This document shows, one piece after another, positions 1-47,665 of a stretch of DNA of 64,000 nt. The stretch comes from an uncultured Gemmatimonadales bacterium (GTDB lineage Bacteria > Gemmatimonadota > Gemmatimonadetes > Gemmatimonadales > GWC2-71-9). Within the stretch, counting starts at the first letter, position 1. The number at the start of each line of letters is the position of its first letter. The notes beneath the pieces are model-generated. The model made no database searches and was not told where the DNA came from. It saw nothing but the letters and a program-made list of their open reading frames with translations. Location: assembly GCA_963817575.1 (NCBI GenBank), contig CAWFOY010000001.1, positions 44,548 to 108,547 of the forward strand. Direction: 5' to 3'. The position numbers were made by a program, and so were the translations under genes.

Positions 1-16
1 CATCTGCCCATCTATG
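1..16. repeat. Octamer array (CATCTGCC orientation), truncated by window edge
   Basis: The sequence reads catctgcc catctatg and sits directly upstream of the uvrA ATG at 25. It uses the same unit as the other arrays in the window. Confidence 0.7.
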
Positions 17-18
17 TT
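13..18 (+). promoter_or_regulatory. -10-like TANNNT (TATGTT) 6 nt before the uvrA ATG; possible leaderless promoter
   Basis: The context is TATGTT-tcccgc-ATG with no Shine-Dalgarno sequence. The same geometry recurs at four other genes in the window. Confidence 0.3.
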
Positions 19-24
19 TCCCGC

Positions 25-2826: not shown

Positions 2827-3452
2827 GCCTGTCCTTCGATCCGCGCGATGCGATCCGCCACTTGCGGCGCGCCGATCCCGCCCTGGCGCGAGTCATCCGC
2901 CTGGCGGGCCCTTTCCCGTTGGAACCTGCCCGCCGGATGTCGATCTTCGAGGCCCTGCTCGTGTCGATCGTCCACCAGCAGTTGAGCGGTAAGGCGGCGG
3001 CGACCATCCACGGCCGCGTCGTCGCGCTCTATTCGCCGCGACGCGCCCCGCGGCCCGAGGAGCTGCTCGCCACTGCGGACGAGGAGTTGCGCCGCGCCGG
3101 GCTCTCGCGGAACAAGACGCTCGCGGTGAAAGACCTCGCGGCCAAGTGCGCCTCCGGAGTCGTGCCGAGCATGGCCCAGCTCCGACGGATGCCCGATGAG
3201 ATGGTCGTCGAGCGGCTGACCGCGGTGCGTGGAGTGGGCCGCTGGACGGCGGAGATGGTGCTGATGTTCCGGCTGGTGCGGCCCGACGTCCTGCCGATCG
3301 ATGATCTGGGCATCCGGAAAGGATTCCAGCGGGTGTACGGCCGGCGGCGGCTGCCAACGCCGCTCGCCGTGGCGCGCCACGGGGAGCGGTGGCGCCCTTA
3401 TCGGACCGTGGCGTCCTGGTACTTGTGGCGCTCGCTCGAATCCCCGCCCTGA
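2823..3452 (+). CDS. DNA-3-methyladenine glycosylase II-like HhH-GPD base-excision enzyme
   Basis: 209-aa ORF with an HhH-GPD signature (LTAVRGVGRWTAEMVLMF) and a catalytic Asp context (LPIDDLGIRKG). Its start overlaps the uvrA stop by ATGA. Confidence 0.8.
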   Translation: MSLSFDPRDAIRHLRRADPALARVIRLAGPFPLEPARRMSIFEALLVSIVHQQLSGKAAATIHGRVVALYSPRRAPRPEELLATADEELRRAGLSRNKTLAVKDLAAKCASGVVPSMAQLRRMPDEMVVERLTAVRGVGRWTAEMVLMFRLVRPDVLPIDDLGIRKGFQRVYGRRRLPTPLAVARHGERWRPYRTVASWYLWRSLESPP

Positions 3453-5491
3453 AGCAGATCGGTCGCTGCCGCGATCGCCTCGTGGGTTCCGGTGAGCGCC
3501 AGCACGTCGCCGTTGCGCAGGTGTTCCCGCGCGGACGGAAAGACCATCCGCTCGTCACCCCGCCTCAGCCCGACCACTGACGCCCCGGTCAGGCCGCGCA
3601 GGTTGAGCTCCGCCAGGCTCTGCCCCGATCCGGGGCTCCCCGCCCCGATCGTGACCTGAGTGAGATCGCCGATGCCGGGCAGGATCTTTCGCACCTCTTC
3701 CAGCATGCCGTCCTCACCCGTCGTCCGGCGATTCTGCCGCGCCAGCGCCTCGACGATCATCGTCGCCCCGGCCCGTACGTGGCCCTGCAGGTCGCGCGCG
3801 GAGCGCCAGAATGCGAGACCAAGCAGGAGCAGCAGCACGCCGAGGAACGCGGGGCCGCCGTAGGCCGGCAGGAACGGAAGCGTCACCGCGACGAGGGGGG
3901 CGCCGACGATCAGCACGATGCCGATCTGAATGCTGAGCCGGAGCGCGCGGCGCGGGGCGAGACCGAGGTCGGCCTTGCCGGGATTCGGCAGGGGCACGGC
4001 CATCGTGGAGAGCAGGGTTCCCAGGGCACGCGCGGCGCGGGCGATGCCATACAGGAGCGGAAACAGCACGGCGAGGGCCAGGGCCACGGCGCCGAGACGG
4101 ATCGCGGGCGGATCGAATCCGGTCAGCGTCGCGAGGTGCGCGGTGCCGCGGGTCACCGCCAGGGTCGAGCCCGCCACGATGGTCGCGAGCAGGACCGCGT
4201 CGAGGACGATGAACCGGGTGAGGCGGCGGATCCGGGCAGCCGGGGTGTTCGCTCGGGCGGCAAGCCGCGCCGATTCGACCCACGAGCCGTAGAGCGTGGC
4301 ATAGGTCTGCAACGCCCGGGGGAGCCGCCGGTCGGCGTAGTTCGCGACGGCGCTCGACTGCCCTACCAGCCAGTGCGTCGAGAGGGCCGTAATGGCCGCG
4401 ACCGCGACCGCCACGGGCGGAATGAAATCGCGTACGGCTCCGCTGGCGACACCGATCCCGGCGATGATGAAGGAGAACTCGCCGATCTGCGCGAGCGAGA
4501 GCCCCGCGCGCACGGCGGTGCGCGTTCCGAGGCCGGCGAGGAAGGTTCCGGCGGTGACGCCGGCGAACTTGCCGAGCAGGACTACAATCGTGAGAACAAC
4601 GATCGCGCCCCAGTGAGCCGGAATCGCGCCGGGCTCGATGGACATGCCGACCGCGACGAAGAAAATCGCGGCGAACATGTCGCGCAGCGGCCGCACCAGC
4701 GGTTCGACCTGGCGGCCCGCCCCGCCCTCCGCCACGAGCGCGCCGGCGAGGAATGCCCCGAGGGCGACCGAGTAGCCGGCAGCATGAGCCAGGAGGGCCA
4801 GGCCGAAGCAGAGCCCGACGCTTGCCACCAGCGTCGTCTCGTCCCGCCGGAGCCGCACCACCCAGCGAATCCAGCGGGGGACAATGAAGAGCCCCACGAC
4901 CATGACCCCCGCCAGGAAGGCCACCAGCCGAGTCAGCGTGCCGGCCACAACGTCGGCGGAGGGTCCCACGCCGGTCGCAACGGCGGTGAGCACCGCGATG
5001 AAGAGGATCGCGACGAGGTCCTCCACGACCAGCACCCCGTACACCACCTCGGCCAGCTTTCCTGCGATGTGCCGCTCGTGAAAGACCTTGGCAATGATCA
5101 TCGTGCTCGAAATCGACACGATCGCGCCGGCGAAGAGACTCTCCAGCCGGGTCCAGCCCATGAGCTGCCCGGCGATGAAGCCGAGTCCGAGGCACAGCCC
5201 CACCTCGATGGCCACAATGAGGCCGGCCGTGGAGGCGAGCCGCCCGAGCTTCCGCACCGTGAAGCCGAGCCCGAGGGAGAACATCAGCAGGATGACGCCG
5301 AGCTCGGAGAGCGTGCGCACGGTTTCGACGTCGGCCTGGACTGGCGGAAAGTCGTGCGGGCCGAGGGCGATCCCCGCCACCAGATAGCCCAGGACCGGGG
5401 GCAGCCGCAGGCGCTGGAAGAGGACGCTCGTGACGGCGGCGATGCCGAGGACGAGGGCCAGATTGGTCAGGAAGGCGGCGGCGGAGTCCAT
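3398..5491 (-). CDS. Monovalent cation:proton antiporter (CPA2/Kef-type) with C-terminal RCK/TrkA-C domain
   Basis: 697-aa ORF with a polytopic N-terminus (LVLGIAAVTSVLFQRLRLPPVLGYLVAGIALGP) typical of KefB/YbaL. The C-terminal TrkA-C-like segment reads GQSLAELNLRGLTGASVVGLRRGDERMVFP. The 3' end overlaps the glycosylase gene by 55 nt in convergent orientation. Confidence 0.85.
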   Translation of the reverse strand: MDSAAAFLTNLALVLGIAAVTSVLFQRLRLPPVLGYLVAGIALGPHDFPPVQADVETVRTLSELGVILLMFSLGLGFTVRKLGRLASTAGLIVAIEVGLCLGLGFIAGQLMGWTRLESLFAGAIVSISSTMIIAKVFHERHIAGKLAEVVYGVLVVEDLVAILFIAVLTAVATGVGPSADVVAGTLTRLVAFLAGVMVVGLFIVPRWIRWVVRLRRDETTLVASVGLCFGLALLAHAAGYSVALGAFLAGALVAEGGAGRQVEPLVRPLRDMFAAIFFVAVGMSIEPGAIPAHWGAIVVLTIVVLLGKFAGVTAGTFLAGLGTRTAVRAGLSLAQIGEFSFIIAGIGVASGAVRDFIPPVAVAVAAITALSTHWLVGQSSAVANYADRRLPRALQTYATLYGSWVESARLAARANTPAARIRRLTRFIVLDAVLLATIVAGSTLAVTRGTAHLATLTGFDPPAIRLGAVALALAVLFPLLYGIARAARALGTLLSTMAVPLPNPGKADLGLAPRRALRLSIQIGIVLIVGAPLVAVTLPFLPAYGGPAFLGVLLLLLGLAFWRSARDLQGHVRAGATMIVEALARQNRRTTGEDGMLEEVRKILPGIGDLTQVTIGAGSPGSGQSLAELNLRGLTGASVVGLRRGDERMVFPSAREHLRNGDVLALTGTHEAIAAATDLLQGGDSSERHKYQDATVR

Positions 5492-5497
5492 GGAGGG

Positions 5498-5503
5498 AAG
5501 ATA
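5498..5503 (-). promoter_or_regulatory. -10-like TANNNT (TATCTT) 6 nt before the antiporter ATG
   Basis: The minus strand reads catctgcc catctgcc cgtctgtc caTATCTTccctccATG. No SD sequence is present. Confidence 0.3.
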
Positions 5504-5504
5504 T

Positions 5505-5536
5505 GGACAGACGGGCAGATGGGCAGATGGGCGGGA
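5505..5536. repeat. Octamer array, about 4 units (GGACAGAC GGGCAGAT GGGCAGAT GGGCGGGA)
   Basis: Read directly from the sequence. It lies between the divergent antiporter and C-N hydrolase genes. Confidence 0.85.
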
Positions 5537-5606
5537 GAACGTTGGCGCCGGGCCCAGGCACCACTATGATGGGAGGAGGTGGCGCACCCGCACTCGGGAG
5601 CTCGGC

Positions 5607-6494: not shown

Positions 6495-7210
6495 ACGCGG
6501 TCGAGGCGCTGCCCGCCGTGGATGTCAGGGTCACGCTGGACTCGGACATCCCGGGCGTCATCGAACTCAGTCGCGACGTATACCCCAGCTCCGCGCCCTG
6601 GGCGGAGAAGCAACTGGCCTCCCATCTCGCCGTGTTCCCGGAGGGGCAGTTTGTCGCCATCGAGCGATCATCCGGTCGGGTGGTCGGCATGGCGGCCAGC
6701 CTCATCGTGCTCTGGGATGATTACGACACGGTAGGTACCTGGCGCGACTTCACCGATGGCGGGTACTTCCGGAACCACGACCCGATGCGGGGGCGGACGC
6801 TCTATGGCGCGGAGGTGATGGTCGCACCGGACATGCAGGGCAAGGGGGTCGGCTCCGCGCTCTACGCAGCCCGTGAGGCGCTCGTGCGCTGGCGGAAACT
6901 GCTCCGGATCCGGGCTGGTGCGCGACTGCGCGGCTATCACCGCGTGGCATCCAGAATGAGTCCGGCGGAGTACGTGACGCGAGTCCTACGGAACGACCTG
7001 ACGGATCCAACGCTCTCGTTCCAGCTGGCCCACGGATTTCGGGTGCTGGCGGTCGTGGCCGGTTACCTGCGCCACGATCCGCAGAGCCTGGGGTTTGCGG
7101 CGGTGATCGAATGGATCAACAAGGAAGTGGCGACGCCCTCGGACTACCAGGCGCACTCGGTGTGGCACAAGACAGCTCCCGAGGAGGGACTCGAACCCCC
7201 GACCCGCTGA
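6491..7210 (+). CDS. GNAT family N-acetyltransferase
   Basis: 239-aa ORF with an acetyl-CoA-binding-type motif (VAPDMQGKGVGSALYAAREALV). Its start overlaps the hydrolase stop by ATGA. The last 35 nt overlap tRNA-Asn on the opposite strand. Confidence 0.75.
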   Translation: MNAVEALPAVDVRVTLDSDIPGVIELSRDVYPSSAPWAEKQLASHLAVFPEGQFVAIERSSGRVVGMAASLIVLWDDYDTVGTWRDFTDGGYFRNHDPMRGRTLYGAEVMVAPDMQGKGVGSALYAAREALVRWRKLLRIRAGARLRGYHRVASRMSPAEYVTRVLRNDLTDPTLSFQLAHGFRVLAVVAGYLRHDPQSLGFAAVIEWINKEVATPSDYQAHSVWHKTAPEEGLEPPTR

Positions 7211-7249
7211 TTAACAGTCAGCTGCTCTAACCAACTGAGCTACTCGGGA
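7176..7249 (-). tRNA. tRNA-Asn (anticodon GTT)
   Basis: I folded it by hand. The acceptor stem is TCCCGAG/CTCGGGA, the anticodon arm is GCTGA-CTGTTAA-TCAGC, and the T-loop is GGTTCGAGTCC. CCA is not encoded. Confidence 0.9.
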
Positions 7250-7440
7250 AGGTGCTGCTACGCGGTGCAATCTTAATCAGCTGGCAGAAGGCGGGGAAGC
7301 GGGAAAGCGGGGACTTCCCTGCCTTGCCCCTTCCCGCCCGTTTTCCACCCTACCCACGCTCCTATCCACCCGTTTTCCGCTCTTTCCACATCCGGGTGCC
7401 CGAAAATCGACCCTCACGGTCGATGTGACAGGTCACTCGA

Positions 7441-7680: not shown

Positions 7681-7681
7681 T

Positions 7682-9240: not shown

Positions 9241-9979
9241 CGGCGTCTCACCGGCCACTCGAGACAGGAGGAACGACATGACGACCCGAACCGACTCCCA
9301 GACCGACGGCATGCGTCCGCCGGCCCGGCTGTTCATGCGGGGAGGTTTGCTCCTCGGTGCGGCCGTGCTGGTGAGCGCACTCGCGGGCTGGCCGCGGCGG
9401 GCCGGCGCAGATGACTCGGCGCCCTCGCCATCGGCCGAGTTCGTCTCGCGCGAGATTCAGGACCTGACCGGCCGTCTTCAGGCGGCGCAGGGCGAAGCTG
9501 CATTGCTCAGAATCCAGCTGGAGCGCGCGGAGGCGGTGCACGGCTACTCCACGCAGTACCAGATTCCGGCCGACCTGGCCGCCTCGATCTACGATATCGC
9601 GCTGAGCGAGGGGATCGAGCCTGCGCTGGCGTTCCGGCTGGTGAAAGTGGAGAGCAACTTCAAGCAGACCGCGCGCAGTAACAAGGCGGCCATCGGCTAC
9701 ACGCAGCTCCGGCTGGCCACCGCGCGCTATTACCAACCCGGCATCACCGAGACCGAACTGGCCAACCGTGACGTGAACCTGCGGATTGGCTTCAGGTTCC
9801 TGAAGGACCTGCTCGAGCGGTTCGACAACAACCTGAACCATGCCCTCCTGGCCTATAACCGGGGGCCCACCATCGTGGCCGGGATCCTGGCCCAGGGCGG
9901 GGATCCGGCGAACGGGTATACGACCAAGGTACTCCGTGGAGACCCGCGCGCCGGGAAGCTCCCGACGACGCTGAACTGA
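9233..9979 (+). CDS. Lytic transglycosylase (SLT domain) protein
   Basis: The SLT motifs [21 protein letters not shown] and LLAYNRGP are present, with an N-terminal hydrophobic signal/anchor. The start is uncertain; alternatives are ATG 9278 or later. Confidence 0.75.
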
Positions 9980-9982
9980 TCA

Positions 9983-10044
9983 CAGATGGGCAGATGGGCA
10001 GATGGGCAGTCGAAGGTGCTGACCGCCTGTCCGACTGTCCGACG
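9983..10044. repeat. Composite repeat: (CAGATGGG)x3 + core TCGAAGGTGCTGAC + (CGCCTGTC/CGACTGTC) array
   Basis: Read directly from the sequence. It lies between the convergent SLT and ctaA genes. The same core follows arrays at 16079-16093 and 22986-22998. Confidence 0.85.
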
Positions 10045-10046
10045 CT

Positions 10047-11111
10047 TCAAGAGACGACGGCTGGCGCCCTGCGCCGGCCGTTCGTCGTTTGGAGCCCGTG
10101 GAGCGCCAGCACCGCGGCCGTGAGCACCAGAACCGCGCCCGCCTGGTGGAGCGCCGCGATGGGAATCGGCACGGCGAGCAGCAGGGTCGTCACGCCCAGG
10201 CCCGCCTGGGCCGCGGCGAGAAGTGCCAGTGCCCCCAGTGCCCGTCGCGTCGACGGGGGGGCGCTCCGCCGCCCACCCGTCCACAGCGCGAAGGCTCCCA
10301 GCAGCACCCCAAGCCCCAGCAGGCGGTGATGGAATTGCACCGCCCCCGGATTCTCGAACAGGTTGAGGTACCACGGGGTGAGCGCCGTGTACCCGGGTGG
10401 AATCACCCGGCCGCCCATCAGAGGGAACGTGTTCCACGCCTTCCCGGCGTCGAGCCCAGCCACGAAGGCACCCGAGAGAACCGTCAGGAACACGTAGAGA
10501 GCGAACCCTGCTACAACGCGGCGCAGCGCAGATTCCGCCTGTCCGCCTGACCGTCCGTCCGCCTGTCCGACGCCAAGCAGATCCGCCGCAGTCCAGACCG
10601 TGATGACGTAGATGACCAGCGCCAGTGCCAGGTGGGCGGCGAGGCGGTACTGGCTCACGTCCGTGCGCACGGTGAGGCCGCTCTCCACCATGTACCACCC
10701 CATCGCGCCCTGCAGCGCGAGCAGGACGAGGAGCAGCGCGAGGCGGCGCGCCAGAGGGCCGCTCACCATCCGCCTGGCAAGGAACGCGAGGAACGGCACC
10801 GCGAAGGCGAGCCCGACCAGCCGCGCCCAGAGCCGATGCACGTACTCGACCAGATAGATGCGCTTGAATCCGGCCAGGGTCATGCCGGGATTGTGAAGCT
10901 GATACTCCGGGATCTGGCGATACCGGGAGAACTCTGCCTCCCAATCAGCGGCGGAGAGGGGCGGAAGCGTTCCGGAGACGGGCTTCCATTCGGTGATGGA
11001 GAGGCCGGATTCCGTGAGTCGGGTGATGCCGCCGATGACGACAGTCAGGAGCACCAGAGCGGCCCAGACAGCGAGCCAGAGGCCGATGGTGCGGCGGTGG
11101 GTGGGATGCAT
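10047..11111 (-). CDS. ctaA: Heme A synthase (COX15/CtaA family)
   Basis: 354-aa polytopic ORF. The N-terminus GGITRLTESGLSITEWKPVSGTLPPLSAADWEAEFSRYRQIPEY is diagnostic of the COX15 type. Confidence 0.9.
   Translation of the reverse strand: MHPTHRRTIGLWLAVWAALVLLTVVIGGITRLTESGLSITEWKPVSGTLPPLSAADWEAEFSRYRQIPEYQLHNPGMTLAGFKRIYLVEYVHRLWARLVGLAFAVPFLAFLARRMVSGPLARRLALLLVLLALQGAMGWYMVESGLTVRTDVSQYRLAAHLALALVIYVITVWTAADLLGVGQADGRSGGQAESALRRVVAGFALYVFLTVLSGAFVAGLDAGKAWNTFPLMGGRVIPPGYTALTPWYLNLFENPGAVQFHHRLLGLGVLLGAFALWTGGRRSAPPSTRRALGALALLAAAQAGLGVTTLLLAVPIPIAALHQAGAVLVLTAAVLALHGLQTTNGRRRAPAVVS
10535..10572. repeat. Octamer array (CCGCCTGT type, about 4.5 units) inside the ctaA CDS
   Basis: The sequence ccgcctgt ccgcctga ccgtccgt ccgcctgt ccgacg encodes the loop GVGQADGRSGGQAE on the minus strand. 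Confidence 0.75.
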
Positions 11112-11116
11112 GCAGG

Positions 11117-11122
11117 AAAATA
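11117..11122 (-). promoter_or_regulatory. -10-like TANNNT (TATTTT) 5 nt before the ctaA ATG
   Basis: The minus strand reads ctgacccg ctgacccg ctgacccg ctg TATTTT cctgc ATG. No SD sequence is present. Confidence 0.3.
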
Positions 11123-11149
11123 CAGCGGGTCAGCGGGTCAGCGGGTCAG
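11123..11149. repeat. Octamer array (CAGCGGGT)x3
   Basis: Read directly from the sequence. There are four GGG tracts on the plus strand, and the array lies immediately upstream of the ctaA start. Confidence 0.85.
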
Positions 11150-11151
11150 GG

Positions 11152-11191
11152 CCGAGAAAAAGGTGGGGCCCGAATTCATCCAGGCCCCACC
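11152..11191 (-). terminator. Intrinsic terminator downstream of the LysM transglycosylase gene
   Basis: The minus strand has a 9-bp GC stem (GGTGGGGCC / GGCCCCACC) and a 12-nt loop, followed by TTTTTCTC. Confidence 0.75.
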
Positions 11192-11221
11192 CGCATTCCA
11201 TTCGTCCGCCTGACCGCCGGT

Positions 11222-15887: not shown

Positions 15888-15960
<73 letters not shown>

Positions 15961-16000: not shown

Positions 16001-16080
16001 GGGCGGATGGGCAGATGGGCAGATGGGCAGATGGGCAGATGGGCAGATGGGCAGATGGGCAGATGGGCAGATGGGCAGCC
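16001..16080. repeat. Octamer array, 10 units (GGGCGGAT, 8x GGGCAGAT, GGGCAGCC)
   Basis: Read directly from the sequence; it contains 8 perfect consecutive copies. It begins 41 nt upstream of the tRNA-Lys 5' end and is followed by the core CGAAGGTACTGAC. Confidence 0.95.
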
Positions 16081-16107
16081 GAAGGTACTGACAGCCCGTA
16101 TGCCGTT

Positions 16108-16680: not shown

Positions 16681-16712
16681 GCGGGGCGGACGGATGTGTA
16701 ACAGGAGGGTGA

Positions 16713-16821
16713 CGGGGGACAGGTTAGGAAGTTGGGAAGTCAGGCAGTTGGGATGTCAGGAGGTCGGGAAGCTAGAGGGCAGGTCGTCCCACCTGTCCGC
16801 CTGTCCGCCTGTCTGCCCGCC
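16713..16821. repeat. Two adjacent 8-bp-period arrays (GGGAAGTY-type, then CCTGTCCG x3)
   Basis: The first array is aggttagg aagttggg aagtcagg cagttggg atgtcagg aggtcggg. The second is cctgtccg cctgtccg cctgtctg cccgcc, which abuts the rnhB stop. Confidence 0.8.
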
Positions 16822-17450
16822 TACAGTAATCCCAGCTGAGCTACCGGCCCGAAGCTCCTGCGGTGATGCGGGGTGGGGCCCCGCTCGGCGAGGGCGAGCA
16901 GGTGGCCCTCGCTGCCGTAGCCCTTGTTGGAATCCCAGGCGTAGCCGGGATGGCGGAGCGCGAGGCGCCGCATCAGCCGGTCCCGTACCGTCTTGGCGAT
17001 GATGCCCGCAGCCGAGACGCTCTGGCAGTGGGAATCGCCCTCGACCAGCGCCTCGTGGAGGAAGCCGATTTCCGGCATCTGCAGGCCGTCGAGGAGCAGG
17101 CGGGGAAGCGGGTCAGCGGGACAGCGGGTCAGGATGCGGACAACAGCCCTTCGCATGGCCAGCGCGGTGGCCACCCGGATGTTGAGCCGGTCAATCTCGG
17201 CCACGGAGGCGGCCCCAAGGGCCAACGCCAGTGCCGCCCGGCGGATCGTGACCGCAAGGGCTTCCCGCTGCGGGGCGGAGAGCGTCTTGCTGTCGCGGAG
17301 CCCGGCGAGGCGGTGGGCGCCGGCCGGAAACACGACGGCCGCGGCAACCACTGGACCCGCCAGTGGGCCGCGGCCCGCTTCGTCCACTCCGATGAGCAGC
17401 CGTCCCTCCGCCCAGACGGCCGCCTCACGGGACAGCGTCGGACGGCGCAC
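16821..17450 (-). CDS. rnhB: Ribonuclease HII
   Basis: The motifs IGVDEAGRGPLAGPVVAAAV, DSKTLS and SAAGIIAKTVRD are present. I chose GTG 17450 as the start because the track ORF (16821-18122) runs on through rplS and trmD in another frame. Confidence 0.88.
   Translation of the reverse strand: MRRPTLSREAAVWAEGRLLIGVDEAGRGPLAGPVVAAAVVFPAGAHRLAGLRDSKTLSAPQREALAVTIRRAALALALGAASVAEIDRLNIRVATALAMRRAVVRILTRCPADPLPRLLLDGLQMPEIGFLHEALVEGDSHCQSVSAAGIIAKTVRDRLMRRLALRHPGYAWDSNKGYGSEGHLLALAERGPTPHHRRSFGPVAQLGLL
17107..17133. repeat. Octamer array (AGCGGGTC type, 3 units) inside the rnhB CDS
   Basis: The sequence agcgggtc agcgggac agcgggtc encodes LTRCPADPL on the minus strand. Confidence 0.65.
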
Positions 17451-18565: not shown

Positions 18566-19088
18566 CCATCAGCCCTTCCGGCGGCGCGATGACCAGCCGC
18601 CTGGCATCCCGGTCGACCTCCAGCACGAATTCCTTTCTGTACGGCAGCAGGAACTCCCGCTTCGGGCCCTGGACCTCGATGGCCACGCCGGCCGGCAGCT
18701 CGTACACATCGGTGACGAGTCCGATCGCGGTGCCATCCTCGAGCCGCACGGCGAACCCGGCGAGCTCGTGCAGGTAGACTTCCCCTTCCGCCAGTGGAGT
18801 CGCCTGTTCCGCCGGCATCCCGAAGAAGCCGCCCCGGAATCCTTCGAGACCGTCGCGGTGGTCCACTCCGCGGAACTTCAGCAGCCACTCGCGGTGATAG
18901 CCCCGGCTCCGCTCGATTTCCAGCGGCCCGCCGGTCACTTCACCCGCCAGGTCGAGCACCAGCAGCGCGCGTCCGGGCGCGAACACCGACTCGGGCGTGT
19001 CGGTGAGGGGGTAAATCGTGCACTCCCCCTTGAGCCCGTGCGGCTTGCGGAACCGCCCGACCACCAGGTGGCGGGCGCCCCCGGACAT
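18558..19088 (-). CDS. rimM: 16S rRNA processing protein RimM
   Basis: The N-terminus reads [14 protein letters not shown], and the gene sits in the conserved rpsP-rimM-trmD order. Confidence 0.88.
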
Positions 19089-19090
19089 CG

Positions 19091-19354
19091 TCAGGCCGTC
19101 GCGGCCTTGAACACGCCGGCCTTCTTGAGCAGTGACTGCACCGTCTCGGACGGCGTCGCGCCCTTCGCCAGCCAGGCCTTCGCCTTCACGGCGTCCACGG
19201 TCACCTGGGCCTTTTCAGACTTGGCCTTGGGATCGTAGGTGCCGATGATGTCGATGAACCGGCCATCGCGCGGGGCCTCCTTGTCGGCCACCACGATGCG
19301 GTACAGCGGGAGCTTCTTCCGCCCGACGCGGCGGAGGCGAATGCGAGTTGCCAT
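19091..19354 (-). CDS. rpsP: 30S ribosomal protein S16
   Basis: The sequence begins MATRIRLRRVGRKKLPLYRIVVAD. An SD sequence (AGGAAGAGAC) lies upstream of the ATG. Confidence 0.95.
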   Translation of the reverse strand: MATRIRLRRVGRKKLPLYRIVVADKEAPRDGRFIDIIGTYDPKAKSEKAQVTVDAVKAKAWLAKGATPSETVQSLLKKAGVFKAATA

Positions 19355-19377
19355 GTCTCTTCCTGTTGTGTGCGTGC

Positions 19378-20709
19378 TCAGCCCGGGAAACCGCGCCCGA
19401 ATGGCAGCCGGGCTCCCGGCTTGCCGGCCACCTTCATGAATTTCTGCATCTGCTTGAACTGCGCCAGCAACTGATTGACTTCCTGCACCGTCCGGCCGCT
19501 GCCCCGCGCGATCCGCGCGCGCCGCGAGCCGTTGATCAGATCCGGATCCTGCCGTTCCTTCGGCGTCATCGAGAGCACGATCGCCTCGACGTGCCGAAGC
19601 TTGTCGTCGCCGATGTTCGCCTGCTTGAGCGCCTGCGCATTCACGCCCGGCAGCAGCCCCAGCACGTTCTTGAGCGGCCCCATCTTCTGCATCTGGCGCA
19701 TCGCCGAGAGGAAATCCTGGAAATCCAGGCCCCGCTTGGAGGTCGCCTTCTTCGCGAGCCGCTCGGCCTCGCCCTCGTCCACCGCGGCCTGGGCCTTCTC
19801 CACCAGCGTCAGCACGTCGCCCTGCTGGAGAATGCGCCCCGCCATCCGCTCCGGAATGAACGGCTCGAGGGCGTCGAGCTTTTCGCCCACGCCGACATAC
19901 TTGATCGGCGCCTTCGTCACCCCGTAGATCGACAGCGCGGCACCGCCACGGGCGTCGCCGTCCATCTTGGTGAGAATCACGCCGGTGATGCCGAGCGCCT
20001 CGTGGAAGCCGCGTGCAATGCGCACCGCGTCCTGACCGGTCATGCCGTCGGCCACCAGCAGGATCTCGTGCGGCCGGACCGCGTCCTTGAGCCGCGTGAG
20101 CTCCGCCATCATGTCGGCGTCGATCTGGAGCCGGCCGGCGGTGTCCACCAGAACCGTCCGCGCCCGGGCCTTCCCTGCGGCCTCGATGCCGCGGCGGACA
20201 ATGCCGGCCACGTCGGTCACGCCGGGCTCCGCGTGCACGCCGACACCCGCCTGCCCCGCGACCGTCACCAGCTGGTCCACCGCCGCCGGCCGGTAGACGT
20301 CCGCCGCGACGAGGAACGGCGCCTTCTGTTCGAGCTTGAGGCGCTTCGCGAGCTTGCCCGCCGTCGTGGTCTTGCCGGAGCCCTGCAGTCCCACCAGAAG
20401 AATCACGGTCGGGGGCACCGACGCGAATACAATCGGCGCCTGCTTTTCGCCGAGCAGCGCCACCAGCTCGTCATAGACGATCTTGACGACCTGCTGCCCC
20501 GGACGAACCGACTTGAGCGCCTCGGTCCCGACCGCCTTGGCCTGCACCCGCTCGAGGAATTCGCGGGTCAACTCGAAGCTGACATCGGCCTCGAGGAGCA
20601 CCCGCCGGACCTCGCGCAGCCCTTCCTTGACGGCATCCTCGGTCAGGACTCCGCGGCCCGCGAGGCGCTGCAGCGTAGCCGAGAGTTTGGAGGATAGCTC
20701 GTCGAACAT
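19378..20709 (-). CDS. ffh: Signal recognition particle protein Ffh
   Basis: 443-aa ORF with the NG domain motifs GLQGSGKTTTAGKLA, DTAGR and LTKMDGDARGG, plus a Met-rich M domain. Confidence 0.95.
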   Translation of the reverse strand: MFDELSSKLSATLQRLAGRGVLTEDAVKEGLREVRRVLLEADVSFELTREFLERVQAKAVGTEALKSVRPGQQVVKIVYDELVALLGEKQAPIVFASVPPTVILLVGLQGSGKTTTAGKLAKRLKLEQKAPFLVAADVYRPAAVDQLVTVAGQAGVGVHAEPGVTDVAGIVRRGIEAAGKARARTVLVDTAGRLQIDADMMAELTRLKDAVRPHEILLVADGMTGQDAVRIARGFHEALGITGVILTKMDGDARGGAALSIYGVTKAPIKYVGVGEKLDALEPFIPERMAGRILQQGDVLTLVEKAQAAVDEGEAERLAKKATSKRGLDFQDFLSAMRQMQKMGPLKNVLGLLPGVNAQALKQANIGDDKLRHVEAIVLSMTPKERQDPDLINGSRRARIARGSGRTVQEVNQLLAQFKQMQKFMKVAGKPGARLPFGRGFPG

Positions 20710-20738
20710 AAGCCAAGGAACTTAAACGAGATACGACC

Positions 20739-20838
20739 GATGGGCAAGGCAGATGGGCAGATGGGCAGATGGGCAGTGGGCAGATGGGCAGACGGGCAGA
20801 TGGGCAGATGGGCAGATGGGCAGATCGGCGGGTCGGCG
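20739..20838. repeat. Octamer array, about 12 units of GGGCAGAT with one 7-nt unit
   Basis: Read directly from the sequence. It lies between the ffh start and the 3' end of the four-helix-bundle gene. The orientation is G-rich on the plus strand. Confidence 0.95.
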
Positions 20839-20886
20839 AGGTGAGAGCGGAGCCCTCGCTGCGTCAACCGATGCACGCTGCGGGCG

Positions 20887-21225
20887 TTATTGTTTGGCCA
20901 GCTTTGGGGCCGAAGTTAGTTCGCCCTGGACCGCGCGATTCAACCCCCAGGTCAGGCGACCAGCATGGTCCCTGAGCGCCTCGACCTCGCCCCATTCGGC
21001 CCGATCGAGATAGCCTAAGTCCAATGCGAGCTTCAGATAGTACGAGACTTCAGCCAGCGAACCGAGCGCCACGTCGATGAACCTCCGGAACTCACGGGAT
21101 CCCCGCTTGGCCGACCCTTCAGCCAGATTGGCCGGAGCAGAGACAGCTGCCCGACGTAGCTGCGATACGAGACCGAGGCGCTCGTCAGTCGGCCACGTCG
21201 AGGTGAGGCGATAGACTGCAAGCAC
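20887..21225 (-). CDS. Four-helix-bundle protein (23S rRNA intervening-sequence protein / Avd-like family)
   Basis: 112-aa ORF with a GTG start. The motifs GLVSQLRRAAVSAPANLAEG and REFRRFIDVALGSLAEVSYYL match this family as I recall it. The N-terminus may be slightly short. Confidence 0.75.
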   Translation of the reverse strand: MLAVYRLTSTWPTDERLGLVSQLRRAAVSAPANLAEGSAKRGSREFRRFIDVALGSLAEVSYYLKLALDLGYLDRAEWGEVEALRDHAGRLTWGLNRAVQGELTSAPKLAKQ

Positions 21226-21370
21226 AGACCTGATGGCATGCCTGCCACGCCCGGAGGCTCTCGTAGCGTTTCGTGTCCAGCGGCGATCCGACCGGGGTGG
21301 CCATCGCTTGAATCTCGGAGGCTCTGCCAGCCGTCAGATAACCGATTCGCCGCGAGCGGTAATGCGGTTA

Positions 21371-21409
21371 CCGCCCATCTGCCCATCCGCCCATCCGCCC
21401 ATCTATACT
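21371..21409. repeat. Octamer array (CCGCCCAT/CTGCCCAT x4), inverted relative to 20739-20838
   Basis: Read directly from the sequence. It ends in catcTATACT, 5 nt before ATG 21415. Confidence 0.9.
21404..21409 (+). promoter_or_regulatory. -10-like TATACT 5 nt before the DUF445 gene ATG
   Basis: The context is TATACT-ccgcc-ATG with no SD sequence. This is the closest match to TATAAT among the five cases. Confidence 0.35.
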
Positions 21410-21414
21410 CCGCC

Positions 21415-22977: not shown

Positions 22978-22985
22978 GATGGCCA

Positions 22986-26126: not shown

Positions 26127-26153
26127 GTGACGCGATCCCTTCCCAGGCGGACG

Positions 26154-26942
26154 ATGAAGATTGCTCTGACGATTGCCGGTTCCGATTCCGGCGGCGGCGC
26201 CGGCATTCAAGCCGACCTCAAGACGTTCCACCAGTTCGGCGTCTACGGGACCTCGGTCATCGTGGCACTCACGGCCCAGAATACACGGGGCGTGCGGGCC
26301 GTGCACGCCGTGCCCGAGGCGATGGTCGCCGAGCAGATCGCCGCGCTCGCCGAGGACCTGCCCCCGGCGGCCCTCAAGTCAGGGATGCTCGCGACGCCGG
26401 CGCTCGTGCGGCAGATCGCCGCGGCGATCCGGGCGCTCCGCTGGGGGCCGTACGTGCTGGATCCGGTGATGGCCGCGTCCTCGGGCGACCGGCTGCTCAC
26501 TGCGGATGCCGAGCAACTCGTCCGCGACGAGCTGGTGCCGCTGGCCGCCCTGGTCACCCCGAATCTCGGCGAGGCCGCCATTCTCACCGGCATGGCCGTC
26601 GGGAGCCCGGACGCGATGGAGCGCGCGGGACATCGCCTGCTCGAGCTCGGAGCCGCCGCCGCGCTGGTGAAGGGCGGTCACCTCCCGAGTGATGAACTCG
26701 AGGATGTTCTCGTGACGCCCGGCTTCGTCCGCCGGTACCGCCACCCGCGCGTGGCGACGACCTCCACTCACGGAACCGGCTGCACGCTCTCGGCCGCAGT
26801 CACCGCCGGCCTGGCCCTTGGCCGGGACCTCGAAACGGCCGTGACTGATGCACTCGATTTCGTGCATCGCGCGCTGCTCGCCGCGCCGGGCCTCGGCGGC
26901 GGCCACGGACCGCTCGGGCACCACGTGCCGGCGCGCGCGTAG
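26154..26942 (+). CDS. thiD: Hydroxymethylpyrimidine/phosphomethylpyrimidine kinase
   Basis: The sequence begins MKIALTIAGSDSGGGAGIQADLKTF, and the C-terminal motif THGTGCTLSAA is present. Confidence 0.92.
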   Translation: MKIALTIAGSDSGGGAGIQADLKTFHQFGVYGTSVIVALTAQNTRGVRAVHAVPEAMVAEQIAALAEDLPPAALKSGMLATPALVRQIAAAIRALRWGPYVLDPVMAASSGDRLLTADAEQLVRDELVPLAALVTPNLGEAAILTGMAVGSPDAMERAGHRLLELGAAAALVKGGHLPSDELEDVLVTPGFVRRYRHPRVATTSTHGTGCTLSAAVTAGLALGRDLETAVTDALDFVHRALLAAPGLGGGHGPLGHHVPARA

Positions 26943-26965
26943 GGGCGCACCGCGGTGCGCCCCTA
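26940..26965. terminator. 26-bp perfect palindrome spanning both convergent stop codons (bidirectional hairpin)
   Basis: The sequence is TAGGGGCGCACCG|CGGTGCGCCCCTA. The thiD TAG and the PNP stop (cta on the plus strand) form the two ends. There is no U-tract. Confidence 0.6.
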
Positions 26966-27802
26966 CGCGCGCGCGACGATCCCTTCGATCAGGTCGCCGA
27001 GCTGGCGTCCCACGCGGTTGGCAATCTCGATGACCTCGCCGTGGTGGAGGGCCTGGGTCGTGACGCCCGCGGCGGGGTTCGTGATGGTCGACACGGCCAG
27101 GCACCTGATGTCGAGCGCACGCGCCACGATCACCTCGGGAACGGTGCTCATCCCAACAGCGTCTGCGCCGAGCCGCTCCAGCATCCGTATCTCCGCCGGG
27201 GTTTCGTAACTCGGCCCCAGCACCGCGGCATAGACGCCCTCCTCGAGCCGGATGCCCAACTCGCCGGCTACGGCCGTCGCGTGCGTGCGCAGCTCCCGAT
27301 CGTACGCGGCGGACATGTCGGGAAACCGTGTCTCGCCCGGGGCAACGGGGCCGATCAGCGGGTTCCGGAACATGAAATTGATGTGATCGGTGATCAGCAT
27401 CAGGGTGCCGGCGGAGAAGGCGCGCCGGATCCCGCCCGCGGCGTTCGTGAGCACGAGGGAGTTCACCCCAATGCGGGCGAAGAGACGCACCGGGAGCGCG
27501 GCTGTCGCCGCGGAATGCCCCTCGTAGAGGTGGAACCTTCCGCTCTGCACCATCACCTCGCGTCCTGCGAGCCGCCCCGCCACCAGCTCCCCCCGATGAC
27601 CTTCCACTGTGGGCAGCGGGAACCCGGGAATCTCGGCGTACGGAATGACCACCGCGCTCTGGATTCTTTCGGTGAAGCGGCCGAGCCCGGACCCGAGCAC
27701 GATCGCGATCTCGGGTTTCCGCCCGCCGAGGCGCTCACGCACCGCCGTCGCGGCCTCGGTGATCGTGCTGCCCATCTGCCCATCCGCCCATCCGGCCGTC
27801 AC
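26963..27802 (-). CDS. Purine nucleoside phosphorylase (trimeric PNP family)
   Basis: The motifs IVLGSGLG, GRFHLYEG, TNAAGG and MSTVPEV are present. The GTG 27802 start overlaps the nupC stop (GTGA). An alternative ATG at 27775 lies inside the octamer array. Confidence 0.9.
   Translation of the reverse strand: MTAGWADGQMGSTITEAATAVRERLGGRKPEIAIVLGSGLGRFTERIQSAVVIPYAEIPGFPLPTVEGHRGELVAGRLAGREVMVQSGRFHLYEGHSAATAALPVRLFARIGVNSLVLTNAAGGIRRAFSAGTLMLITDHINFMFRNPLIGPVAPGETRFPDMSAAYDRELRTHATAVAGELGIRLEEGVYAAVLGPSYETPAEIRMLERLGADAVGMSTVPEVIVARALDIRCLAVSTITNPAAGVTTQALHHGEVIEIANRVGRQLGDLIEGIVARA
27768..27797. repeat. Octamer array (CTGCCCAT/CCGCCCAT) at the 5' end of the PNP gene
   Basis: If GTG 27802 is the start, the array encodes AGWADGQMG of the N-terminus. 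Confidence 0.85.
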
Positions 27803-45017: not shown

Positions 45018-45036
45018 CCGCGGGGTGGACGGCGAA

Positions 45037-45189: not shown

Positions 45190-45202
45190 AGGGAACTCCG
45201 TT

Positions 45203-45262
45203 GGTCAGTCGGATGGTCGGTAAGTCGGACGGTCCGACTGCCCGACGGTCCGACGGTCCGTC
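45203..45262. repeat. 8-bp-period array (GGTCAGTC..GGACGGTC..CGACGGTC, about 7 units)
   Basis: Read directly from the sequence. It abuts the ALDH stop codon at 45263-45265. Confidence 0.85.
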
Positions 45263-47665
45263 CTACTCCCCGTACGGGACCCAGATGTTCTTCACTTGCG
45301 TCGCGTGGCGCAGGAATGGCTCACCCTCGCCCCGGTCCGGGTCGTCCCAGGCCACCTGATGCCCGTGGTTGACCCAGGTCTGCTTCAGATTGCCGGCTGA
45401 CAGCTTTTCGACCTGGGTGCTTCCCTCCGCCGTGCCCCAATACCACATCGCATCCACATCGTCGTGGGCGGCCAGCACCGCCGATAGCTCTTCCCGGGGT
45501 CCGGTCACCAGGTTGATCACGCCCCCCGGCAGGTCCGAGGTGTCGAAGACCTGGTAGAGGTCGGTGGCGAGGAGCGGCCACCGGGCGGAGGGAATCGCCA
45601 CCAGGGTGTTGCCCATCGCGACCGGTGGGATCACCGTGGAGAGGAAACCGAGCAGGGGCCAGTCCTCGGGAGCCACGACGCCCATGACGCCCAGGGGTTC
45701 GGGCATCGCGAGCGTGATATTGCGATATGGCGTGTGGTGGACGCGGCCGTCCCACTTGTCGGCCCACGCGGCGTAACTAAACAGGCGCGAGAGCGAGAAC
45801 TCAACTTCCTTCTGCGCATCGGCGTGCGAGCGGCCGGTGAGCGCCTCGAGTCGCGCGGCGAACTCTGCCTGGCGGACGGCGAGGTTTTCGGCGAGATAGT
45901 ACAGCACCTGCGCGCGGTTGTGGGCCGTCGCGCGGGCCCATCCCGCCGCCTTGTGCGCGGCCTCCACGGCGTTCCTGATGTCCTTGCGATTGCCATGCCC
46001 AACTTCGGCGATGAGCCGCCCGCCTGCATCGTGCACCGGCAGGCTGTAGCCGGAATCGGGACGCGCCTGCTTGCCGCCGATGTAAAGCTTGGGAGAGCGG
46101 TCTATCGAGGGATGGGCAGATGGGCGGATGGGCCGTGGGATCACCGCAGCGGCTGCCTGCGCGTACGCCTGAGTTGCCGCCCCGCTGCCCATCTGCCCAT
46201 CCGCCGTGCCGTCCTTCACATACTCCCACAACCCTTCCTTGCCGCCCTCCCGTCCGAATCCGCTCTCGCGGTAGCCGCCGAAGCCCGAGGCGGCGTCGAA
46301 GACGTTCGTGCAATTGATCCAGACCGACCCCGCCTTGATGCGAGGGGCGATGTCGAGTGCGAGGTTGATGTTCTCGGTCCAGACGCTCGCGGCGAGGCCG
46401 TACCTGGTGTTGTTGGCGAGCTCGACCGCCTCATCGGGCGTGCGAAACGTCATCATGACGACGACCGGGCCGAAGATCTCCACCTGCGCGATCGTCGCCG
46501 ACGGGGACACGTCGGTGAAGAGCGTCGGCGGGAAGAAGTAGCCCTCCTTCGGGCAGCTCCACGACGGCTGCCACATCGTGGCGCCTTCGTCCTCGCCCTT
46601 CTGCACCAGCTCGCGGATCTTGTCGAGCTGAACCGGTGCGATGATGGCGCCGATGTCGATCGCCTTGTCGAGCGGGTCGCCCACGCGAAGGGTCTCCATC
46701 CGGGCGCGGAGCCGCGCCACCAGCCGGTCCGCCACGCCCTCCTGGGCCAGGATCCGGGAGCCGGCACAGCAGACCTGCCCCTGATTGAACCAGATCGCAT
46801 CCACGACACCCTCGACCACGCTGTCGAGGTCGGCATCCGAGAAGACGACAAAGGGCGACTTCCCGCCCAGCTCGAGCGACAGCTTCTTGCCGGTGCCGGC
46901 CGTGGTCGCGCGGATGATGCGGCCGACGTCGGTGGATCCGGTGAAGGCGATCTTGTCCACGTCGGGGTGCTTGACGATCGATTCGCCGGTGCGCCCGTCG
47001 CCGGTGAGGATATTCACGACGCCGGGCGGGAGACCGACCTCGTCGCACAACTCGGCGAAGAGCAGCGCCGTCAGGGGTGTGAACTCGGCCGGCTTCAGCA
47101 CGACCGTGTTCCCCATCGCGATGGCCGGCGCGATCTTCCAGGACAGCATCAGGAGCGGGAAGTTCCACGGGATGATCTGCCCGGCCACGCCGACCGGTTC
47201 CATTCCGGGCATCTCACGCTCCATCAGCTGGGCCCAACCCGCATGATGGTAGAAGTGCCGCGCCACCAGCGGCACGTCGATGTCGCGCGATTCGCGGATC
47301 GGCTTCCCGTTGTCCAGCGATTCGAGCACCGCGAGGAGCCGCGTGTGCCGCTGCACGGCGCGCGCGAGGGCGTAGAGATAGCGCGCGCGCCCGTGTCCCC
47401 CGAGAGCGGCCCAGTCCGGCTGGGCCGCTCGGGCCGCTCCGACGGCGCGGTCCACGTCCGCTGCCGACGCCTGCGTCACCTGCGCGAGGACCCGCCCTGT
47501 GCCTGGATTCACGGTGTCGAAGAGCTCGCCGGGCGCAGTCCACTGCCCGCCGATGTAGACGCCGAAGGCCCGGCGGTGGCGGTCGAGCCATTCCTCCGCC
47601 GGCTTCGCCGATTCGGGCGCCGGGCCATATGACATGCTCGCGAAGATCTCGGGTATGGATGCCAT
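45263..47665 (-). CDS. Double-domain aldehyde dehydrogenase: complete ALDH + repeat-derived linker + truncated ALDH-like (NAD-binding half only)
   Basis: The N-terminal ~500 aa carry LELGGKSP and FNQGQVCCAGSR (catalytic Glu and Cys). The C-terminal ~255 aa align to the first half of an ALDH (KLYIGGKQ..AMGNTLV..GVINLVTG) and stop where LELGGK would be. The linker is encoded by octamer arrays. Confidence 0.85.
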   Translation of the reverse strand: MASIPEIFASMSYGPAPESAKPAEEWLDRHRRAFGVYIGGQWTAPGELFDTVNPGTGRVLAQVTQASAADVDRAVGAARAAQPDWAALGGHGRARYLYALARAVQRHTRLLAVLESLDNGKPIRESRDIDVPLVARHFYHHAGWAQLMEREMPGMEPVGVAGQIIPWNFPLLMLSWKIAPAIAMGNTVVLKPAEFTPLTALLFAELCDEVGLPPGVVNILTGDGRTGESIVKHPDVDKIAFTGSTDVGRIIRATTAGTGKKLSLELGGKSPFVVFSDADLDSVVEGVVDAIWFNQGQVCCAGSRILAQEGVADRLVARLRARMETLRVGDPLDKAIDIGAIIAPVQLDKIRELVQKGEDEGATMWQPSWSCPKEGYFFPPTLFTDVSPSATIAQVEIFGPVVVMMTFRTPDEAVELANNTRYGLAASVWTENINLALDIAPRIKAGSVWINCTNVFDAASGFGGYRESGFGREGGKEGLWEYVKDGTADGQMGSGAATQAYAQAAAAVIPRPIRPSAHPSIDRSPKLYIGGKQARPDSGYSLPVHDAGGRLIAEVGHGNRKDIRNAVEAAHKAAGWARATAHNRAQVLYYLAENLAVRQAEFAARLEALTGRSHADAQKEVEFSLSRLFSYAAWADKWDGRVHHTPYRNITLAMPEPLGVMGVVAPEDWPLLGFLSTVIPPVAMGNTLVAIPSARWPLLATDLYQVFDTSDLPGGVINLVTGPREELSAVLAAHDDVDAMWYWGTAEGSTQVEKLSAGNLKQTWVNHGHQVAWDDPDRGEGEPFLRHATQVKNIWVPYGE
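46108..46205. repeat. Inverted pair of octamer arrays inside the ALDH CDS
   Basis: The left arm is gggatgggcagatgggcggatgggc (46108-46133) and the right arm is gctgcccatctgcccatccgcc (46184-46205). Together they are translated as ..ADGQMGSG..IRPSAHPS.. on the minus strand. Confidence 0.9.

Follow-up and report, generated by a model that had tools for sequence, protein, structure and literature searches.

Tandemly repeated heptamers have been known in cyanobacteria since 1990. Repeats of this kind were described by Rehm et al. 2015 (PMC4692102) as GGGAATC in Xanthomonas and as GGGGA(C/T)T (short tandemly repeated repetitive sequences, STRR) in Nostoc. About 185 repeats per genome were counted in two Xanthomonas genomes, about 90% of them intergenic, with 70-75 convergent inverted pairs (PMC4692102). 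The G-rich strand of the heptamers lies antisense within 50 bp upstream of open reading frames (ORFs) or sense within 50 bp past their stops, four units is the mode, and the repeats vary between close relatives, form G-quadruplexes (G4) in vitro and are of unknown function (PMC4692102). Here we analysed arrays of tandem octamers in a stretch of 64,000 nt (the window; G+C content 69%) from contig CAWFOY010000001.1 of an uncultured Gemmatimonadales bacterium. These arrays are long-unit simple sequence repeats (SSRs) that fill the spacers between transcription units of this chromosome, and they are built on inverted pairs, in which a G-rich arm precedes a complementary C-rich arm. In architecture they correspond, with an octamer unit and in a phylum new for such repeats, to the heptamers of Xanthomonas and Nostoc.

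Arrays were called on the 64-kb window by Tandem Repeats Finder and by our own lag-match scan, the gene map was taken from Pfam, and tRNAs were located with ARAGORN and Rfam. At the strict lag-match threshold the window contained nine runs of period 8 and one of period 9, with none at periods 4-7 and 10-15. At the looser threshold it contained 16 period-8 runs, compared to 0-2 (mean about 0.7) in each of 20 order-3 Markov shuffles, and period 8 is the sole enriched tandem period of the window. A preliminary description of this DNA had reported octamers of differing units with a common 8-nt period, at a density far above that usual for bacterial microsatellites. The common period is real and the density is far beyond chance, and every locus it listed was recovered by Tandem Repeats Finder and the lag-match scan, although its list lacked a G-arm/C-arm pair at 7287-7340 and a two-unit remnant at 11196-11221.

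About 15 loci over 46 kb hold arrays of 2.2-12 units arranged head to tail, 11 of them intergenic or at gene junctions and 4 within tolerant coding segments. The GGGCAGAT/GGGCGGAT type is found at 5503-5537, 9983-10009, 16001-16078, 20748-20838, 21371-21408, 27768-27797 and 46111-46133 with 46185-46205, as well as in an edge fragment at 1-16, which is truncated by the window edge to only about 1.5 units. This type includes the largest arrays, at 16001-16078 (9.8 copies, 98% match) and 20748-20838 (about 12 units, one of them of 7 nt). The CTGTCCGC type is found at 10019-10046, 10534-10569, 16785-16824 and 22996-23013 (the last with only 2.2 copies), the CAGCGGGT type at 11123-11149 and 17098-17134, and the GGTCGGAY/GGACGGTC type at 45203-45263; another octamer unit of the window is GCGGACAG. 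The GGGAAGTY array at 16713-16784 is degenerate, with 65% match at period 8 and 80% at period 16. Rfam at the gathering threshold returned two tRNAs and nothing else on the window.

The preliminary description could name no described class for such repeats; this did not hold, since the long-unit SSRs of Xanthomonas (GGGAATC) and Nostoc (STRR) match (PMC4692102). Common to both are head-to-tail units of 6-9 nt at many loci with a strong non-coding bias, convergent inverted pairs, the gene strand rule, three to four units as the commonest size, and a length and sequence that vary between close relatives while the flanking genes are kept. Unlike the heptamers, the unit here has 8 nt (7-9 across the phylum) and does not fit the consensus GGGNATC/GGGGAYT, many unrelated unit families occur in one genome instead of a single consensus, and most arrays lack a four-tract G4 motif. 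In-frame arm pairs in protein linkers and wholesale covariation of arms are seen here and are unreported for the heptamers. Gemmatimonadota is a new host phylum in comparison with the heptamers, and a strict G-then-C polarity is quantified here.

Each intergenic array of the window adjoins a gene end and obeys the strand rule. A tabulation of positions relative to gene ends, which the preliminary description had proposed, was made with a crude gene caller on the window together with 80 metagenomic loci carrying ffh orthologues. Arrays nearest a start were C-rich on the sense strand in 25 cases and G-rich in 9, and arrays nearest a stop were G-rich in 28 and C-rich in 8. Ahead of the uvrA, Na+/H+ exchanger, ctaA and DUF445 genes, the sense-strand C-rich array leads into a TATNNT box, and ahead of ffh and tRNA-Lys it adjoins a TTGNNN -35-like hexamer. 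The promoter-like element of ffh, TTGCCC-N17-TAARYT at 9-10 nt from the ATG, is conserved between the window (20710-20745, -) and a related locus, L028 (953-995), and the array upstream of it is fully replaced between the two. Past the stops, the sense strand carries a G-rich arm after the SLT gene (4 nt), the RNase HII gene (0 nt), the double aldehyde dehydrogenase (Aldedh) gene (0 nt), the DUF445 gene (5 nt), the LysM gene (about 1 nt) and ctaA (adjoining the stop codon), and the nucleoside-transporter stop is overlapped by its G-rich array. Most sizeable spacers are filled by arrays up to the edge of the promoter box.

The TATNNT boxes of uvrA, the exchanger gene, ctaA and the DUF445 gene (13-27; 5489-5503, -; 11109-11122, -; 21405-21417) stand 5-6 nt ahead of the ATG, without room for a Shine-Dalgarno sequence, which suggests that leaderless mRNAs may be common in this Gemmatimonadales genome. 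A role of the arrays as donors of -35 hexamers was also considered and found unsupported: CTGCCC lies at 17 nt in the exchanger promoter, and the distance is at least 19 nt for DUF445 and ctaA.

Pairs of opposite-skew arrays within 200 nt of each other had the G-rich arm first in 21 cases and the C-rich arm first in none. This polarity is the gene strand rule in another form, because a G-then-C pair reads G-then-C on both strands; a G-arm-first inverted pair thus places a G-rich sense array after a stop and a C-rich sense array ahead of a promoter or leaderless start. Adjacent arms were complementary at 89% of unit positions, compared to 63% in cross-locus pairings, and none of 5000 permutations (0/5000) attained the observed mean. 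One arm is frequently collapsed, leaving solo arrays. The repeats had been described as not palindromic, which is correct for single arrays, but most arrays have a complementary partner, with which they make up a G-arm/C-arm pair.

The window pairs fold at -28 to -66 kcal/mol. The pair in a protein linker at 46108-46206 reaches -59 to -66 kcal/mol, the pair at 16713-16824 reaches -55.4 kcal/mol on the + strand (z -2.3), that at 45203-45263 reaches -38.4 kcal/mol (z -3.0), and the whole spacer upstream of ctaA reaches -52.2 kcal/mol (z -3.9). The pair at 7287-7340 folds at -32 to -33 kcal/mol on either strand, not clearly beyond shuffles (z -1.05, -1.68), and the hairpin at 9983-10046 folds at -28.2 kcal/mol on the + strand vs -19.3 on the - strand. 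Selection at the RNA level by strand-specific G-U pairing was considered, as the + strand folds better at 9978-10048 and 16700-16825, and was dropped, as the + strand of 16700-16825 is antisense to both neighbours and the hairpins within ORFs have no consistent sense-strand advantage.

A canonical intrinsic terminator (11161-11192, -; 14-bp stem, 4-nt loop, T5) lies in the loop between the array arms upstream of ctaA, and this organism thus uses U-tract terminators. The arrays were rejected as intrinsic terminators in their own right, since they lack U-tracts, none of them was called, and one true terminator lies between arms. Another loop sequence recurs: a core of 15 nt, CAGYCGAAGSTRCTG, stands after a GGGCAGAT arm and before a CTGTCCGC arm at three window loci and at one in L016, and a fifth match, at window 51137-51151, has no adjoining array.

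An exact scan for (GGGCAGAT)x4, with one genome per species, gave 27 loci, 8 of them in the Gemmatimonadales metagenome-assembled genome (MAG) SMAG_U785 and 2 in another Gemmatimonadota MAG. L017, from SMAG_U785, is 94% identical to window 18998-26966; the best protein relatives likewise bear Gemmatimonadales names, and the window thus belongs to a Gemmatimonadales bacterium close to SMAG_U785. An exact look-up of the Ffh encoded in the window found no record. The array upstream of ffh has 12 units in the window vs about 4.4 in L017, by a clean 57-nt indel within the array, and the G-arm downstream of DUF445 has about 1 unit in the window vs 11 in L017, including a block of six GGGCACAT variant units. 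The arms thus grow and shrink by whole units, and variant units spread blockwise; between 94%-identical genomes, both are hallmarks of replication slippage. L017, an independent assembly, has the identical 4 units as the window upstream of the DUF445 gene.

L028 shows turnover of another kind. It shares 98% Ffh identity and 91% DNA identity with the window, and its array sites are the same while the unit family has changed in the ffh-upstream, DUF445-upstream, PAP2-upstream and RNase HII-loop arrays. Upstream of ffh the unit is ATCTGCCC in the window and CTTCCYAA in L028, and upstream of PAP2 it is CTTCCCAA-like in the window and CCGCCCAT in L028; both own both families, at different spacers. 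Over the long term, the unit sequence turns over completely and the two arms remain complementary.

The preferred period also tracks lineage. Across the 80 loci, 33 arrays had period 7, 43 period 8 and 26 period 9, with 2 each at periods 5, 10 and 11. At Ffh identities of 87% or more to the window, all 13 arrays of these three main periods had period 8 (0 of period 7, 0 of period 9); at 78-85% identity there were 17, 27 and 16 arrays of periods 7, 8 and 9, and at 66-72% there were 16, 3 and 10. A heptamer family, GAGGACT/AGTCCTC, was observed alongside octamers in SMAG_U785, so that one genome can hold two periods, and reaches 14 units in a more distant relative (sites L013 758-814, L016 5834-5890, L012 3017-3055 and L035 16544-16642).

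The 8-nt unit had been said not to be codon-based. This is true of the unit itself, but three units make 24 nt, and arrays are carried in frame within the RNase HII, CtaA and double Aldedh genes. In RNase HII, the sense strand of the array reads CTGACCCG CTGTCCCG CTGACCCG and encodes LTRCPADPLP. The insert lies in the loop between AMRRA..RL and ..LxDG, which has 3-4 residues in distant relatives, and in the array-rich clade it consists of three octamers of a lineage-specific unit: CTGACCCG in the window, CTTCCYAA in L028, CGTCCCCG in L030 and L029, and CTGCCCSA in L075. In L037 a full G-arm/C-arm pair is in frame. Inserts in this surface loop range from 0 to 25 residues in the L028-L091 orthologues. 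The array in CtaA encodes GVGQADGRSGGQAES, at about residues 180-193 of 354, in the central segment between hydrophobic stretches.

The double Aldedh has 800 amino acids (aa) here (45263-47665, -) and joins a complete aldehyde dehydrogenase to a further Aldedh-like module of about 280 aa; the fusion is conserved, at 789-835 aa, in Gemmatimonadales and Longimicrobiales. Linkers were extracted by regular expression from 120 Aldedh proteins (P0001-P0120), and the DNA of L108-L111 was inspected. The linker is hypervariable (31-76 aa) and contains motifs, among them DGRTDGRADGR and VRPSARPS, that resemble a translated array pair. Among the four other lineages with linker DNA, three had lineage-specific, mutually complementary G- and C-arms and the fourth had a reduced C-arm, and the four linkers fold at -69 to -126 kcal/mol. 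Since the arms differ by lineage and yet are complementary, they covary wholesale, and are no more than tolerated by the protein. Two genes with an array-filled spacer between them may have become fused when a stop codon in that spacer was lost.

Our best guess, to which we give slightly less than an even chance, is that the arrays are slippage-maintained hairpin or cruciform spacers that insulate transcription units. Complementarity between arms would be kept by intrastrand (hairpin-templated) correction or by selection, and the pair would fold into a long hairpin in RNA made by read-through, or into a cruciform where the DNA is supercoiled, which would insulate the neighbouring transcription units. 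A polymerase entering the spacer from either side would copy the G-arm first and its complement next. A G-quadruplex would be possible only in the minority of arrays with four or more GGG tracts.

Several points weigh against insulating spacers. The function is deduced from geometry alone, and the arrays, which have no U-tracts, were not called as intrinsic terminators. Upstream of ctaA, the canonical terminator sits in the loop, and transcripts that end there never contain the C-arm. Hairpins within ORFs have no consistent folding advantage of sense over antisense, so that selection at the RNA level is not demonstrated, and many arrays are solo or strongly unbalanced, e.g. 10 units vs about 1. 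Persistence of the arrays could stem from mutation pressure and not from selection, and simple slippage does not explain the strict G-then-C polarity or the lineage-specific period. A more far-reaching proposal, which we consider doubtful, is that an active copying process that imposes polarity would write and homogenise palindromic microsatellites genome-wide, and G-then-C hairpins would be universal transcription-unit boundaries in Gemmatimonadota. The nascent strand folding back behind a G-rich array and an enzyme devoted to the task are candidates for this process; it would apply a lineage-specific 'ruler' of 7, 8 or 9 nt, shared unit families would hop between spacers, and G-then-C hairpins would be carried along within protein linkers.

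Insulating spacers have their closest competitor in a purely mutational origin, which is nearly as likely, even if on its own account we would call it rather unlikely. Slippage of 7-9-nt units, with fold-back or hairpin-templated copying in unconstrained sequence, would produce the arrays as a by-product without cellular function, and the strand rule and polarity would result from the way in which the arrays are generated or from the elimination of harmful orientations. This agrees with the whole-unit indels and block-wise variants between 94%-identical genomes, with complete unit turnover at fixed sites, with arrays in tolerant coding segments (the RNase HII loop, the CtaA central segment and the Aldedh linker of 31-76 aa), with most sizeable spacers being array-filled to the promoter-box edge and with a separate canonical terminator where one is needed; the heptamer analogues are likewise without a found function (PMC4692102). 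However, a polarity of 21 to 0, which holds also within ORFs, together with the lineage-specific period, would demand an unknown mechanistic asymmetry in the generation of pairs. The same spacer still holds arrays in lineages of 78-98% Ffh identity, the Aldedh linker does so throughout the order, and unit families and the loop core are common to several loci and genomes, all of which weighs against a by-product. At the other extreme, an assembly or sequencing artefact is scarcely credible. Short tandem repeats can mis-assemble, and copy numbers in short-read MAGs are uncertain, but independent assemblies, made in different projects, carry the same arrays at orthologous sites, and reading frames are conserved through the arrays within ORFs.

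Three further explanations give the arrays a specific activity. Regulation by G-quadruplexes or i-motifs, with the G4 formed by the template strand ahead of promoters and by the sense strand or RNA past stops, was proposed for the Xanthomonas and Nostoc heptamers, which form G4 in vitro under the same strand rule (PMC4692102). The GGGCAGAT, CAGCGGGT and GGGAAGTY units do yield G3-N5 spacing, and four or more G3 tracts are present in each of the arrays at 16001-16078, 20748-20838 and 21371-21408. We rejected G4 as a general explanation, and think it improbable as the main one: the canonical four-tract motif is present in only 27/116 arrays of the clade, most window arrays have three tracts, and an adjoining complementary arm favours a duplex hairpin. 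The CTGTCCGC, GGACGGTC, GGTCGTA, CACAGAGG and GAGGACT families have no GGG at all, and the preliminary characterisation of the repeats by their G-tracts thus fails as a general trait. An equally small chance is given to mobile miniature elements, such as REPINs (hairpin-forming doublets of repetitive extragenic palindromic, REP, sequences), miniature inverted-repeat transposable elements (MITE) or the Rickettsia-palindromic type, in which the whole arm-loop-arm unit would be copied by a transposase or dedicated enzyme and slip later. The composite (GGGCAGAT)n-CAGYCGAAGSTRCTG-(CTGTCCGC)n at three window loci and L016, the same unit families at different orthologous spacers of close relatives, the in-frame RNase HII insertions, including the full inverted pair in L037, and a 2.3-kb indel between L034 and L035 flanked by arrays would suit copying of this kind. 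Yet no target-site duplications or fixed termini were noticed in the L017 and L028 alignments, for which no systematic search was made, and no transposase or REP-associated tyrosine transposase (RAYT)-like gene appeared among about 25 array-adjacent ORFs scanned against Pfam, in which no search was aimed at one. Length differences are whole units within an array instead of presence or absence of a bounded element, and the units diverge too far from lineage to lineage to share a single conserved recognition sequence. Repeats for phase variation (contingency) or tandem sites bound by a regulator are very improbable. Copy number does differ between relatives, and arrays adjoin promoters, but the neighbours are housekeeping genes (uvrA, ffh, ctaA, tRNAs and the RNase HII gene rnhB), the -35 or -10 box comes downstream of the arrays, so that promoter spacing is unaffected by a change of units, and arrays within ORFs are in frame in conserved proteins. 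As regulator sites, the units are lineage-dependent, and with a period of 8 bp consecutive sites do not share one face of the helix.

Other classes of repeats share single traits with the arrays. REP sequences, bacterial interspersed mosaic elements (BIME) and REPINs are dispersed, mostly extragenic palindromes. Like them, the arrays are dispersed and mostly extragenic, lie just past stops, form hairpins and often stand as inverted pairs, and the recurring loop core is a REP-like trait that suggests copying between loci. Unlike the fixed 20-40-nt palindrome of REP and REPIN, the arms are variable-number tandem units of several families, arrays are also found within ORFs, and only the 15-nt loop core recurs, beside arrays at four loci. 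Rickettsia palindromic elements, reportedly described by Ogata and colleagues in 2000, are said to form fixed families of 100-150 nt. An in-frame palindromic insert translated in conserved proteins (RNase HII, Aldedh) is similar to them in behaviour only, with no sequence relationship, and the insert here is a microsatellite pair with a lineage-dependent unit. Contingency-locus SSRs, known from host-adapted pathogens, have units of 1-5 nt, in 5' coding regions or between -35 and -10, in surface or restriction-modification genes; slippage-driven change of copy number is shared with them, and none of their unit size, placement or gene links is found here. CRISPR arrays, already discounted in the preliminary description, were rejected, as the units are contiguous 8-mers without spacers vs the required 21-48-nt repeats with unique spacers.

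No paper on Gemmatimonadota repeats of this kind, or on the unit, was found in the literature searched, and the survey of Huang and Mrazek does not mention the phylum Gemmatimonadota. The octamer multi-family form, the strict polarity, the lineage-specific period and the in-frame linker hairpins are undescribed in that literature. Neither a function nor a generating mechanism is established for the cyanobacterial or Xanthomonas heptamers, and Gemmatimonadota provides a third independent case, with greater internal variety: several periods, dozens of unit families, a strict arm polarity and in-frame copies in conserved proteins. Comparative questions can thereby be posed, namely what sets the period, what keeps the arms complementary and why the G-arm always comes first. 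On the practical side, the arrays will break short-read assemblies, mislead the calling of gene starts, because ORFs run through C-rich arrays, and create hypervariable protein linkers, and they could serve as variable-number tandem repeat (VNTR) markers for strain typing in an abundant soil phylum.

The individual loci are as follows, from left to right. The edge-truncated (ATCTGCCC) array (1-16, -) is C-rich on the + (sense) strand of uvrA, whose UvrA domains were identified with Pfam, and runs into TATGTT (13-18), 6 nt ahead of the ATG at 25. The array of (GGGCAGAT) x3.8 (5501-5537, +) is C-rich on the sense strand of the Na+/H+ exchanger gene (3398-5491, -) and adjoins its TATCTT box, 6 nt ahead of the ATG, and beyond it lies a promoter-like site of the divergent CN-hydrolase gene (5542-5570). 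The pair at 7287-7340 (+), a G-arm of (GCGGGRAA) x3 and then a CTTCCCNG-type C-arm, is located between tRNA-Asn (7175-7249, -) and the next + gene. Between the convergent SLT gene and ctaA lies a composite hairpin (9983-10046, +): its G-arm, (CAGATGGG) x3.4, begins 4 nt past the SLT-gene stop, the loop core is CAGTCGAAGGTGCTG (10007-10021), and the C-arm, (CTGWCCGM) x3, ends 1 nt short of the last base of the ctaA stop codon at 10047. Within ctaA, a GGCGGACA-type array (sense strand) is in frame at 10534-10569 (-). Upstream of it, (CAGCGGGT) x3.4 (11123-11149, +) is C-rich, (CTGACCCG) x3, on the ctaA sense strand and adjoins TATTTT, 5 nt ahead of the ATG at 11111. This arm pairs around the intrinsic terminator at 11161-11192 (-) with the two-unit G-arm remnant (GGCGGTCAGGCGGACG) (11196-11221, -), which directly follows the stop of the LysM/SLT gene.

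The locus at 16001-16100 (+) comprises (GGGCAGAT) x9.8, the loop core CAGCCGAAGGTACTG (16076-16090) and ACAGCCC, to which the partner arm has collapsed. Read on the - strand, this locus is C-rich and precedes tRNA-Lys (15888-15960) by 40 nt, and it lies 7-30 nt past the PAP2 stop at 16108. At 16713-16824 (+), a degenerate (GGGAAGTY) x6-9 arm is followed by a (CCTGTCCG) x3-4 arm, and on the - strand the RNase HII stop is immediately followed by a G-rich arm, and a C-rich arm precedes the PAP2 start by 33 nt. The array in frame within RNase HII is (CGGGTCAG) x3 (17098-17134, +). The array of about 12 (GGGCAGAT) units at 20739-20840 (+) is C-rich on the ffh sense strand and adjoins the ffh promoter TTGCCC-N17-TAAGTT, 9 nt ahead of the ATG at 20709. 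On the + (sense) strand of the DUF445 gene, (CCCATCYG) x4 (21369-21408, -) runs into TATACT, 5 nt ahead of the likely start at 21415, and past the stop of this gene by 5 nt begins a pair at 22982-23013 (+) with a collapsed G-arm (GGATGGCCAG), the loop core CAGCCGAAGCTACTG and (CTGTCCGC) x2.2.

The array at 27764-27801 (-), (CCCATCYG) x3 on the + strand and G-rich on the sense (-) strand, makes up the short spacer that separates the nucleoside-transporter stop (27799-27801) from the PNP gene. This spacer of about 30 nt is array throughout, and an in-frame ATG at 27772, inside a GGGCAGATGGGC unit, is the likely PNP start codon because it best fits the Pfam domain boundary. At 45203-45263 (+), between convergent genes, a GGTCRGWH-type G-arm and then a C-arm (CCGACGGT) adjoin the double-Aldedh stop codon, which begins at 45263. 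The inverted pair in frame in the interdomain linker of the double Aldedh (46108-46206, -) reads on the sense strand (GATGGGCR) x3, about 50 nt, and (CCCATCYG) x3.

Outside the window, an insertion of about 2.3 kb distinguishes L035 (16448-19027) from L034 (16447-16696), in contigs that are about 91% identical. It contains several small ORFs, one resembling a LuxR-type helix-turn-helix protein, and its spacer is flanked by (CCTCAGT)x14 and (TGCGACT)/(CCCAGCT) arrays; array spacers may be hot spots of gene gain and loss. Scans of viral contigs were uninformative: GGGCAGAT had 0 matches, and two permuted controls had 1 each. Single (GGGCAGAT) arrays with 4 or more units were also observed in Actinomycetota, Beta- and Gammaproteobacteria, Desulfobacterales, Planctomycetota, Acidobacteriota and Cyanobacteriota (L002, L004, L006-L009, L014, L018, L021, L022 and L024-L027); they are intergenic and follow the same strand rule where gene ends are clear. 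Within the window, a 648-aa ORF at 23412-25358 (-), of which the coding strand is ambiguous by G+C content at third codon positions (GC3), weakly matches the IrrE/Peptidase_M78 N-terminal-like domain (E 8e-5).

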